Part shown: piece by piece, positions 49,496 to 51,741 of the stretch
Position numbering within the stretch: position 1 is the stretch's first letter
Layout of the letters: each line of letters opens with the position of its first letter
Source of the DNA: an uncultured Bacilli bacterium
GTDB taxonomy: Bacteria; Bacillota_I; Bacilli_A; RF39; UBA660
DNA length: 64,000 bases
Direction: 5' to 3'
Assembly (NCBI GenBank): GCA_934101115.1
Contig: CAKOPW010000003.1
Location: 10,037-74,036, forward strand
The notes under the pieces: model-generated
The model's input: only the letters and a program-made list of their open reading frames with translations
Database searches by the model: none
Told to the model about the DNA's origin: nothing
Translations under genes and position numbers: made by a program

Positions 49496-50611
49496 CTAAT
49501 TAATTCTAATAGTGTCACATTTTGAAGCTTCGTTACCTGCATTATCTATTGCATATGCACAAAATGTTCTACCGCTTGTAGAGTCCAAATATAAAACATT
49601 CTTTATAGTTCTTTCATTTCCATCAACACGTGATGCTCCACTACCATTTCCATAAGGGACAAGCCAAGTTTGAAATTTTTGAATACCTGTTCCATTGTCA
49701 TAACCATCAATATAAACTCTAATATTCCATCCTTGCTTCTTATTTGATGGATTATAATATCCCAAATTTTCAACATGAAATGATGTAATCGTTGGTGGTA
49801 TATTATCATACCATGAAGGATTTATAACAAATGAATCGGTTACAGTCCATGTATAGTCTTTAAATGAAGTAATACTATATCCTTCTTTTTCATTAACATA
49901 AACTCTAATTGTAGACCCATAGTCAATCTGATTGTTATAGTAGTCTGTAACATTTTCAGCAACTAAAATCCCATTAATCCATACTGAAAAAGTAAATTCA
50001 TTCAATCCAGTATCATATGTAATATTTTGAATAATCGGATTTATATCAATTACATACTTATTAACATCCCAATTAGCTAAAAAATTTAAATCTCCAGTTG
50101 TTCCCGATGGAATCGTGACAGCTAATTGTTTCCCCTCAATATTACTTCCTGTCCAACCTAAAAAACTAAATCCAGTTTTTGTTGGTGTTGGTAATGTAAA
50201 ACTTTCTTCAACATTATAACTTGTCTTCTGTCCACTTATTGAACCGCCATTTAAATTATAGGTAATTCTATATGTGTTGATCTTCCACATTGCATATATT
50301 TCTCTATTATTTATATCATTTACATCAATAATGTTATTCGAATAATCTATATTTCCATCTGTACTTTTACTATAACCCGAAAAAGTATATCCTTTTCTTG
50401 TTGGAATTGGTAAATCCGTTTTCCCTTTTGAAATTGAAATATCACTACTACTAAATTTCCCTTCACCGGCATTTAACTTAAATACATAACCTTTTGCTTT
50501 GAACAGTGATTCTAAATCTATTTTTGATGAAAAATACGCAAAAGTTCCACTTAAAGAACAAAATAATGCAAGTATAATTGATATTAAAAAAAATTTATTC
50601 TTTCTTTTCAA
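49496..50611 (-). CDS. Secreted protein with a SipW-type signal peptide and InlB-B (Listeria-Bacteroides) repeats
   Basis: 371 aa. N-terminus ...SLSGTFAYFSSK; repeats ...RKGYTFSGYSKSTDG... and ...KTGFSFLGWTGSN...; Ig-like C-terminal region. Confidence 0.6.
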   Translation of the reverse strand: MKRKNKFFLISIILALFCSLSGTFAYFSSKIDLESLFKAKGYVFKLNAGEGKFSSSDISISKGKTDLPIPTRKGYTFSGYSKSTDGNIDYSNNIIDVNDINNREIYAMWKINTYRITYNLNGGSISGQKTSYNVEESFTLPTPTKTGFSFLGWTGSNIEGKQLAVTIPSGTTGDLNFLANWDVNKYVIDINPIIQNITYDTGLNEFTFSVWINGILVAENVTDYYNNQIDYGSTIRVYVNEKEGYSITSFKDYTWTVTDSFVINPSWYDNIPPTITSFHVENLGYYNPSNKKQGWNIRVYIDGYDNGTGIQKFQTWLVPYGNGSGASRVDGNERTIKNVLYLDSTSGRTFCAYAIDNAGNEASKCDTIRIN

Positions 50612-51092
50612 TTTTTCTCACCACTTTCTTTTTTTTGTTTTTATATGAATCATTGCATAAATCAACAATTATAATCCCTAATGAAATATATAGTAAATAT
50701 TTGTGTCCATATATATAATCAGCATAATATCCGATAAAAGGAATAGACCAGTCTGTTCCTTTTCCTAATACTTGTTCATGATTAACTAATTCACTATCCA
50801 CGCTGTTATTCATATCACCTTTAGTTACAAATCCATTGTCAGTTATATTGATAATACGATGTGATATTACATGATCTTTTGTTGTATAAACTAATATATC
50901 TCCTTCATCAAATTCATTAATATTAATTTTTTCATAATATAAGATTCCTCCAACTTTTAAAACAGGTTCCATACTTCCAGATATAACTACAAGAGGTTTA
51001 TGTCCAAAAACTGATGGAACAAAAATCAATAAATAAATTGCTAGCAAAATATATATTATTCTAAATATAAAATCTTTTACTCTAACTAACAT
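50595..51092 (-). CDS. sipW: Signal peptidase I, SipW-type
   Basis: 165 aa. VISGSMEPVLKVGGILYY (catalytic Ser box), ...VISHRI..., and a C-terminal TM as in SipW-like enzymes. Confidence 0.75.
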   Translation of the reverse strand: MLVRVKDFIFRIIYILLAIYLLIFVPSVFGHKPLVVISGSMEPVLKVGGILYYEKININEFDEGDILVYTTKDHVISHRIINITDNGFVTKGDMNNSVDSELVNHEQVLGKGTDWSIPFIGYYADYIYGHKYLLYISLGIIIVDLCNDSYKNKKKKVVRKIEKKE

Positions 51093-51129
51093 TTTTTCCT
51101 CCTAAAAAGGAAGCTATATTAACTTCCTC

Positions 51130-51741
51130 TTACCACATATTCTTTGCTTGATCGTATTGAATTGTATCGATTCTAATAGTTAATTTATATGTTGCATTAT
51201 CATATCCATCACCTGATGATGTATAAGTGATTGTATGCCCATCAGCAGAAATTGTTTGATTTAAGCTAGCCTTAATATTTTCATTGAATGTTACTCCATT
51301 AATAAATGAAGAAGTAGTTTCAGCAGGTGCAACTTTTACCATATTATCTTTTGATCCATAATAAAAATAGCCATCACTTGCCTTTGTCCAACCTTCGTTA
51401 AAATTGATAATTGCTGCAACATTATTATCTACATCCTTTAATGGTAGTTCTGTTCCATTAGATGTTATCCATTTTTCTGTATAGCTTACTCTAACAGCCA
51501 TATCAATACTTCCTGTATTTGTTACTTTAATTGTTTTATCAGTAGTTGTTCCAGGTGTCCAATCTGTTGGTGACTCAAAATTTTCTACTACTTCATTTTG
51601 ATAAATTGCTGTTTTAAATTTATTTGCAATTTCAGTATTAGTTGTAAAATATGCTAGTGTACTCCCTATAGTTGTAAAAATACCTATGCCTAATATAGCT
51701 AACATCTTTTTTCTTCTTTTATTCTCTTTTTTCTTTTCCAT
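51130..51741 (-). CDS. TasA/BsaA/camelysin-family matrix-fibre protein with a SipW-type signal
   Basis: 203 aa. N-terminus ...GIFTTIGSTLAYFTTNTEIANKF, then ...WTPGTTTDKTIKVTNTGSIDMAVRV.... Confidence 0.65.
   Translation of the reverse strand: MEKKKENKRRKKMLAILGIGIFTTIGSTLAYFTTNTEIANKFKTAIYQNEVVENFESPTDWTPGTTTDKTIKVTNTGSIDMAVRVSYTEKWITSNGTELPLKDVDNNVAAIINFNEGWTKASDGYFYYGSKDNMVKVAPAETTSSFINGVTFNENIKASLNQTISADGHTITYTSSGDGYDNATYKLTIRIDTIQYDQAKNMW

Follow-up and report, generated by a model that had tools for sequence, protein, structure and literature searches.

Introduction

TasA fibres are built by exchange of donor strands, each supplied by the mature N-terminus of a subunit (PMC9674648), and assembly of TasA is started by TapA, which gives a similar strand from its own N-terminus (PMC10151520). 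In Clostridium perfringens, the signal peptidase SipW is needed for the secretion and polymerisation of BsaA (PMC7395162), for which an exchange-and-lock mechanism has been proposed, with an N35–K74 isopeptide bond catalysed by E56 and with V33 and F37 buried (PMC11580942). Genes of the BsaA/TasA type often neighbour genes for LPXTG proteins, SpaA proteins, sortases and signal peptidases, and the preprint describing this is silent on conjugation and mobile elements (PMC11580942). Here, we describe a three-gene relative of these systems, hereafter the cassette, on the minus strand (51741..49496) of a 64-kb stretch of DNA from an uncultured Bacilli bacterium (64,000 nt; hereafter the window, on which all coordinates are counted). 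The cassette lies in the centre of ICE-2, an integrative and conjugative element (ICE) of ~26 kb at roughly 34.3–60.4 kb.

How Gram-positive donors find and hold their recipients is poorly understood, and few adhesins have been studied (PrgB, TIEpLS20 and CnaC/SrtD); we know of no extended mating appendage in Gram-positives. The thioester adhesin TIEpLS20 raises transfer of pLS20 ~1000-fold in liquid (PMC8092201), and SrtD is cited in PMC8225981 as needed for efficient transfer of pCW3. The first-pass annotation of this DNA, made from the letters alone, knew of no SipW-fibre module described as part of a Gram-positive conjugation apparatus; the full-text literature (subscription-only literature lay outside our search) likewise yielded no description of a SipW/TasA/BsaA-type cassette in a conjugative element. 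What is new is the conserved genetic setting, and probably also the functional one, in which a known fibre system is found, together with a new type of accessory protein.

A predicted SipW-dependent fibre cassette

Checking of translations confirmed three consecutive minus-strand open reading frames (ORFs) where the first-pass annotation had placed them, in the order subunit, peptidase, accessory protein. The first encodes a putative fibre subunit of 203 amino acids (aa) with a SipW-type signal (51130..51741, -), the second a type I signal peptidase of 165 aa (50595..51092, -) and the third a 371-aa accessory, possibly fibre-end, protein with Flg_new and immunoglobulin (Ig)-like domains and a TTG start (49496..50611, -). 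The protein identities proposed earlier also held, with matches above cutoff to TIGR04090, TIGR02228 and Flg_new in hidden Markov model (HMM) searches, as did the placement of the genes in a conjugation locus, with adhesin and sortase genes upstream and genes for single-stranded DNA-binding protein (SSB), VirB4, relaxase and type IV coupling protein (T4CP) downstream. Judged by sequence, the three genes are a complete, self-contained SipW-dependent cassette of the BsaA/TasA type, carried by an ICE and under selection.

A pattern scan of all six frames of the whole window found the SipW-type signal motif only in the 203-aa and 371-aa proteins, so that the peptidase and its presumptive substrates form a closed set. 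Two other processing routes were considered and rejected: that SipW processes components of the type IV secretion system (T4SS), given the confinement of the motif to the two cassette proteins, and that the 203-aa or 371-aa protein is a sortase substrate, since neither has a C-terminal sorting signal or transmembrane (TM) segment.

The subunit matched TIGR04090 ('BsaA family SipW-dependent biofilm matrix protein') at 116.3 bits against a cutoff of 60, and it belongs to the BsaA family, not to the VirB2/TraA pilin family. Its score against Pfam Peptidase_M73 (PF12389, TasA/camelysin) was 16.6 bits, below the gathering cutoff of 22.5, and 41 of 45 close homologues matched this family at E <= 0.01 (best 2.2e-7); the relationship to TasA and camelysin is therefore remote and at the level of the family. 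The N-terminal region reads ...IGSTLAYFTTNTE, with a signal segment GSTLAYFTT and predicted SipW cleavage between TLA and YF, an assignment made purely by pattern match to ..G-T-x-A-[YF]-F-T. All 45 homologues have Y31 and F32, at least 90% of them have T28 and A30, and the motif holds in 151 family representatives.

The subunit carries a putative donor strand, YFTTNTEIANKFKTAIY. The consensus of the mature N-terminus is Y-F-T-T-S-x-x-I-x-N-x-F-K-T-A-L-Y; the motif is present in 120/120 subunits, with the asparagine in 114/120. In the window protein, I38-x-N40-x-F42 mirrors V33-x-N35-x-F37 of BsaA, and N40, E53 and K69 occur together in 137/151 family representatives as a candidate isopeptide triad. 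The BsaA fingerprint at positions 35/56/74 was found in none of the proteins retrieved, and a covalent N40–K69 lock is a candidate only. An AlphaFold2 model of the subunit (pLDDT 68) shows a beta-sandwich core with residues 1–48 disordered; with this model, the Foldseek match of highest TM-score (0.42) was the TasA fibre 8aur, whose probability (0.97) was among the highest (E 0.019). All Foldseek matches of the subunit model were weak, and the predicted structure agrees weakly with the family assignment.

Directly downstream of the subunit gene, and adjacent to it in 55 of 56 related loci, is the gene for the SipW-type peptidase. Its product matched TIGR02228 (sigpep_I_arch, the model for ER/archaeal-type signal peptidase I to which SipW belongs) at 97.5 bits (cutoff 51.85), and its translation contains the catalytic-type motifs SGSMEPV, SHRI and KGDMNN. 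Against NF046067, the equivalog model for Bacillus SipW, it scored 86.1 bits, below the cutoff of 190, and we therefore call it SipW-type and not an orthologue of Bacillus SipW. Its ORF and the TTG start of the 371-aa gene overlap by 17 nt (50595–50611). In two 99%-identical copies of the region (L057, at 10650–11130, and L059) the called peptidase is 157 aa long, with no overlap, a small 3'-end difference from the window.

The accessory protein carries the same SipW-type signal (...SGTFAYFSSK). It matched Flg_new at 52 bits (cutoff 27), and TIGR02543 matched two stretches of it. Its AlphaFold2 model (pLDDT 90) consists of a signal helix, a disordered segment (residues 23–34) and four beta domains in a row at residues 45–111, 113–183, 185–268 and 274–368, two of Flg_new type and two Ig-like or beta-sandwich domains, which are reminiscent of the stalk regions in adhesins and ancillary pilins; Foldseek matched the model to tandem Ig/FN3 adhesin rods. 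Neither a TasA-like domain (model and Foldseek) nor a wall anchor was found in the protein, and it had no match to the TapA family in Pfam or NCBIfam.

The accessory protein also carries a copy of the donor-strand motif, YFSSKIDLESLFKAKGY, with the pattern YF..S..I.N.FKT..Y in common with the subunit. Across 87 orthologues the mature N-terminus follows [YF]-[FY]-x-[TS]-[ST]-x-x-[IL]-x-[N/S]-x-F-K-T-x-x-Y, the residue at the position of the subunit asparagine being N in 48 and S in 34, as in the window protein. Because it would offer a donor strand and no acceptor groove, the accessory protein could occupy only a polymer end with a free groove. Taken together, its motif and its model suggest a protein that starts the fibre as TapA does and/or sits at its end (tip), where the likeness to TapA would be a functional analogy only, based on the donor-strand-like N-terminus.

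The last ~150 aa of the accessory protein exist in two unrelated versions that are swapped between elements, with the breakpoint at the end of a conserved DNA block, and the number of Flg_new repeats in its orthologues varies from 2 to 4. A swapped C-terminus with variable repeats is the pattern expected of a putative binding module. The two versions (compared among window positions 49496–49950, the proteins P0173, P0200, P0206 and P0210, and locus L001) are an Ig-like one with DNAGNE..KC and one starting 'HFYLNG...'.

Association with conjugation genes across loci

The subunit has 435 homologues in a clustered protein database, the best 120 of which are 63–99% identical to it, and a full HMMER scan returned 1887 family representatives. 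Looking up gene contexts and scanning GTDB species genomes gave 56 loci (L001–L056). Of these, 55 come from metagenome-assembled genomes (MAGs) that are mainly of gut and rumen origin and carry the labels Bacilli, Clostridia or Erysipelotrichaceae; the sole isolate is Clostridium tarantellae (L056).

These loci fall into two classes. In class A (L001–L040), whose subunits are 60–83% identical to that of the window, the order is subunit, SipW, Flg_new protein; in class B (L041–L056), with subunits 38–48% identical and to which C. tarantellae belongs, SipW precedes the subunit. The Flg_new partner is present in 39/40 class A loci and in 0/16 of class B. T4SS genes occur in the available sequence of 29/40 class A loci versus 0/16 class B loci and, where full 10-kb flanks are available, in 15/16 versus 0/7. 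Almost all of the class A T4SS genes lie on the strand of the cassette, and an adhesin and a sortase stand upstream in about half of these loci. Class B neighbours are instead a second small SipW-signal protein, large surface proteins and apparent housekeeping genes (judged from ORF translations); these loci look chromosomal and probably represent the fibre systems native to the lineages concerned. Besides SipW and a BsaA-like protein they encode, for example in L052 (8924–19912), proteins of ~1150, ~690 and ~214 aa and a small SipW-signal protein, and a sortase in some cases; in L052 the whole gene set is tandemly duplicated, and an extra subunit paralogue is present.

At least four diverged VirB4 lineages accompany class A cassettes (~53%, 46% and 25–28% identity to the VirB4 of the window, and one on the opposite strand). 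Cassette position also varies: it follows the adhesin–sortase pair and precedes SSB/VirB4 in the window and at least 15 loci, follows T4CP in L012 and L015, and lies between VirB4/M23 and T4CP in L030 and L031. Since the backbones are many and diverged and the positions varied, the association of cassette and conjugation genes is real and repeated, and not peculiar to ICE-2. PLSDB plasmids had no match to positions 49000–54300 (megablast) or to the subunit (tblastn), and phage records had no match to the subunit (tblastn), so the cassette is on no catalogued plasmid or phage. Two class A contigs (L018 and L032) were binned into 'Muribaculaceae' (Bacteroidota) MAGs; given their sortase, Gram-positive T4SS genes and low G+C, mis-binning is more likely than carriage by Bacteroidota.

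Exchange between elements has been recent. A block of DNA comprising the 3' half of the sortase gene and the cassette (52150–49948) is 84% identical to L001, with flanks at ~66%, and synonymous divergence (dS) from L001 is 0.15 for SipW and 0.31 for the subunit versus ~1.2 for sortase, VirB4 and a TM protein of the transfer region. The low dS of the cassette beside such flanks indicates that it was recently exchanged between elements with long-diverged T4SS genes. In comparisons where dS is saturated everywhere, nonsynonymous divergence (dN) is 0.05–0.33 for subunit and SipW and 0.40–0.85 for VirB4; the lower values point to strong purifying selection on the cassette. The peptidase is its most conserved gene, with 90% aa identity to L001.

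Genes around the cassette

Upstream of the cassette, ICE-2 encodes a 618-aa surface adhesin with a thioester domain (TED; 42.9 bits), three SpaA domains (146 bits) and an ordinary Sec signal (52329..54185, -), followed by a sortase (51755..52339, -; Pfam Sortase, 54 bits). The adhesin ends in a non-canonical sorting signal, VPITE with a TM segment and KKIKYEN (52329–52460, -); related adhesins in L001–L037 have VPxT[E/G/L/S], a TM segment and a basic tail, with VPNTE, VPNTL or VPKTG elsewhere, and not LPXTG. This signal makes the adhesin a likely substrate of the adjacent sortase, which is unclassified: its nearest models are those of classes C and D, and like the other linked sortases it falls below every NCBIfam class cutoff. 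The VPxT[E/G/L/S] signal and these below-cutoff sortases may constitute an undescribed sortase–substrate pairing. In its position directly upstream of the cassette, the pair fits the adhesin modules of Gram-positive conjugation (TIEpLS20 and SrtD–CnaC type).

Directly downstream of the cassette are genes for an HTH_36 protein (49178..49486, -), an SSB-like protein (48653..49051, -), a 106-aa ORF product (48349..48669, -) and an SSB (47786..48136, -), as read from Pfam and NCBIfam searches. A consensus scan for terminators, which found 7 terminator-like sites in comparison with 2.1 expected, placed one hairpin just upstream of the adhesin gene (54274..54290, -) and another, with a 12-bp stem and T run, after the second SSB gene (47759..47788, -) as possible 5' and 3' boundaries. 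The arrangement suggests that the adhesin-to-SSB genes form a transcription unit of their own, upstream of the T4SS channel genes. The first-pass annotation had described a single long minus-strand operon; the common orientation stands, and the uninterrupted operon would give way to a unit bracketed by these hairpins.

The channel block opens with a gene for a 93-aa protein with two TM segments, a VirB2-family 'T4SS_pilin' (47457..47738, -; PF18895, 27.4 bits versus a cutoff of 26.6), which is also flagged in near-identical loci and has homologues (34–63% identity) at the same place in 11 related loci. It is followed by a 474-aa TM protein like pLS20_p028 and Mbov_0396, also matched by an MMCAP2_0566 model (46022..47446, -), and a VirB4-type ATPase (43295..45751, -), whose nearest plasmid relatives are Spiroplasma Mbov_0397-family ICE ATPases at ~29% identity. 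These two proteins are closest to ICE families of Mycoplasma and Spiroplasma, linking an ICE of a walled host to the ICE machinery of mollicutes. Family matches further identify an M23 hydrolase (41666..42514, -), a relaxase (39211..40527, -), a T4CP (36451..38445, -) and a large serine recombinase (34348..35952, -), and a sigma factor (56811..57290), which is a candidate regulator of the adhesin-to-SSB unit, and an HTH_3 regulator lie on the other side of ICE-2.

Other samples contain near-identical ICE-2 transfer regions, one of them with another accessory region upstream. In that 99% variant (L057, 1–7500), an ABC transporter/FtsX pair and a Peptidase_M10-like gene precede the transfer region; the window holds its sigma-factor/HTH regulatory region (54900–60400) where L057 has ABC/FtsX, and L001 shares the ABC/FtsX arm. 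Comparison of these arms indicates that the left arm of ICE-2 has been modularly reshuffled.

The window also contains a second element, ICE-1 (~7000–27500, -), which has a TED/SpaA adhesin (25021..27492, -), an unannotated 153-aa ORF (24502..24963, -), a sortase (23856..24482, -), an SSB, a MobA/VirD2 relaxase (21182..22351, -), a T4CP (18473..20305, -) and a VirB4 (8776..11112, -), and no gene for SipW, the subunit or a Flg_new protein. ICE-1 is a natural 'minus-cassette' comparator, and its existence shows the cassette to be an accessory part that elements of this kind can do without. Type I restriction-modification genes flank ICE-1 (an HsdR C-terminal fragment, 46..1251, and an HsdM-like 855-aa protein, 3871..6438), and a gene for a HipA_C-domain protein lies between ICE-1 and ICE-2 (32714–33901).

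Possible function and alternative explanations

We propose that SipW cuts both substrates after ..TxA, freeing N-termini that begin with YF, and that the 203-aa subunits would then polymerise head-to-tail, each lending its N-terminal strand (I38-x-N40-x-F42) to the one that follows. The junction might be locked by an N40–K69 isopeptide bond with E53 catalysing, as proposed for C. perfringens BsaA. The 371-aa rod would fill the groove left free at one fibre end, as a TapA-like initiator and/or a distal tip, and its swappable C-terminal Ig-like domains would give binding specificity. Because BsaA oligomers are reported to be membrane-anchored rather than wall-anchored, we picture the tip as distal and the base as held by an uncleaved signal anchor. 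Upon induction of the ICE, the cassette would be expressed with the genes for the sortase-anchored thioester adhesin and the SSBs, and the fibre would bring donor and recipient into contact or aggregates, helping mating pairs to form or to be stabilised, as an optional module exchanged among ICEs.

We infer polymerisation of the 203-aa protein into a fibre from its sequence and by analogy with characterised systems, and a role in mating-pair formation solely from synteny; the precedents of TIEpLS20 and SrtD make the latter plausible. That ICE-2 carries a fibre cassette serving as a mating tether seems to us an evenly balanced proposition. The data suggest that, among conjugative elements of Gram-positive bacteria, some make a cell-contact fibre of their own, and a cassette travelling with T4SS genes across many gut ICEs is a concrete candidate for a mating appendage, whose exchangeable end domain could influence the choice of mating partners in the gut microbiome. 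A broader version, in which a widespread class of gut Bacillota ICEs uses a BsaA/TasA shaft, SipW and a Flg_new/Ig tip as a monoderm mating tether and tip swaps set recipient range, is a tentative extension that we regard as rather doubtful.

Several observations weigh against a fibre-like mating tether. The structural link between the subunit and TasA is weak (pLDDT 68, E 0.019, TM-score 0.42), and PDB sequences searched with the subunit family profile gave nothing at E <= 1. The N–E–K spacing is 13/16 in the subunit versus 21/18 in BsaA (N35/E56/K74), and equivalence of the residues is tentative. Every cassette carrier found in class A is an uncultured MAG. The first-pass annotation had also reasoned that Gram-positive T4SSs lack a conjugative pilus, so that a polymerising fibre could substitute for one; ICE-2 itself encodes a VirB2-family protein, although the fibre subunit is unrelated to VirB2 and, in Gram-positive bacteria, VirB2-family proteins are not known to form extended pili. 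The remaining objections are those that make accessory cargo attractive. ICE-1 lacks the cassette, the cassette moves from one backbone to another and changes its place with respect to the T4SS genes, and its exchange has been recent, these last two features being typical of such cargo. The sole characterised homologues are biofilm-matrix fibres (PMC7395162, PMC11580942, PMC9674648).

The most durable alternative, then, is that the cassette brings a benefit to the host: a biofilm-matrix or gut-adhesion fibre that aids colonisation and helps the ICE to persist indirectly, with no direct part in DNA transfer. Chromosomal paralogous loci without T4SS genes in the same bacterial lineages would fit such a fibre, as would the terminator-like hairpins that part the cassette unit from the T4SS channel genes. 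Cargo usually sits at the ends of an element, whereas this cassette is embedded on the same strand among core transfer genes, in the window and at least 15 loci as well as in L030 and L031. The ICE-borne clade is, moreover, distinct and tightly conserved, with an accessory protein of its own (39/40 loci versus 0/16 chromosomal ones), and is linked to a thioester adhesin of a kind shown to act in conjugation (PMC8092201). On this evidence we consider host-benefit cargo possible but somewhat unlikely. Even so, TasA/BsaA-type matrix fibres would then be mobilised horizontally together with their own signal peptidase, which matters for biofilm and colonisation traits.

A second alternative keeps the surface location and gives up the fibre, the two proteins being secreted or surface factors (for exclusion or recognition, as monomers or dimers) whose likeness to fibre subunits reflects shared ancestry only. 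The BsaA paralogue BsaB is reported to form dimers only and no long oligomers (PMC11580942), and the moderate confidence of the subunit monomer model and its weak TasA match leave room for this idea. We nonetheless judge it improbable: there is almost no variation in the donor-strand motif or at the N, E and K positions, and without strand complementation it is difficult to see why a second protein should bear only a donor strand. A chance recent insertion into this one element, with no conserved link to conjugation, is scarcely credible, for although the low dS to the L001 cassette shows that recent exchange has happened, cassettes occur in 40 loci, 29 of them with T4SS genes in the available sequence and on several diverged backbones, and near-identical ICE-2 copies occur in other samples; the first-pass annotation had named absence from all relatives of ICE-2 as what would undo its proposal, and class A cassettes instead stand beside T4SS genes in dozens of diverged ICEs.

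Comparison with known systems

The closest described counterpart of the cassette is the sipW-bsaA-bsaB-bsaC operon of C. perfringens, in which a SipW-type peptidase likewise adjoins a ~200-aa TIGR04090 subunit with the same atypical signal (PMC7395162, PMC11580942). Both loci have further SipW-signal proteins and an adjacent sortase gene, and both subunits show a donor strand of the form hydrophobic-x-N-x-F and conserve N, E and K, though with the different spacing given above. The gene order differs (sipW comes first in C. perfringens, whereas the cassette runs subunit, peptidase, accessory protein), as does the accessory protein, which is the vWA protein BsaC there and a Flg_new/Ig rod here. 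The cassette also lacks a two-component regulator, and it sits inside the transfer genes of an ICE, where the C. perfringens operon is a chromosomal biofilm locus. Even compared with chromosomal paralogues from its own host lineages, the cassette subunit is at most 48% identical. Signal peptidases of pCW3-like C. perfringens plasmids were considered as a precedent and rejected: they are ordinary signal peptidase I proteins (Peptidase_S24_S26/SigPep_I_bact) in variable or toxin-locus regions.

With tapA-sipW-tasA of B. subtilis the cassette shares a three-gene logic of accessory protein, SipW and subunit, a family-level Peptidase_M73 signal and an accessory N-terminal segment that, as in TapA, appears to mimic the donor strand of the subunit (PMC10151520). 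No homology to TapA was detectable in the 371-aa protein, however; the peptidase scores below cutoff on the equivalog model of Bacillus SipW, the subunit is shorter than TasA (203 versus 261 aa), the gene order differs and the context is mobile. The archaeal bundling pili (AbpA), mentioned in PMC9905601 as mediating cell aggregation, are filaments of the same TasA superfamily with presumably the same assembly principle; unlike the cassette, these pili come from archaeal chromosomes, are unconnected with conjugation genes and lack a Flg_new accessory protein.

For the proposed arrangement of the fibre, the nearest analogy lies further afield. Chaperone-usher pili of type 1 and P have a terminal subunit that has a donor strand, differs in its body and places a binding domain at one end of the polymer. 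The analogy would be functional only: the cassette has neither chaperone nor usher, its host is monoderm and its proteins are unrelated to those of the pili.

Among Gram-positive conjugation systems, TIEpLS20 (pLS20), PrgB (pCF10) and CnaC/SrtD (pCW3) resemble ICE-2 in encoding surface adhesion within transfer operons, and the 618-aa TED adhesin with its own sortase parallels TIEpLS20 and SrtD in particular. TIEpLS20, PrgB and CnaC are single wall-associated adhesins, however, and neither a SipW nor a polymerising TasA/BsaA-type subunit has been reported for any of them. If the cassette does act as a mating tether, it would be a functional counterpart of the Gram-negative conjugative pilus, made from an unrelated protein family.

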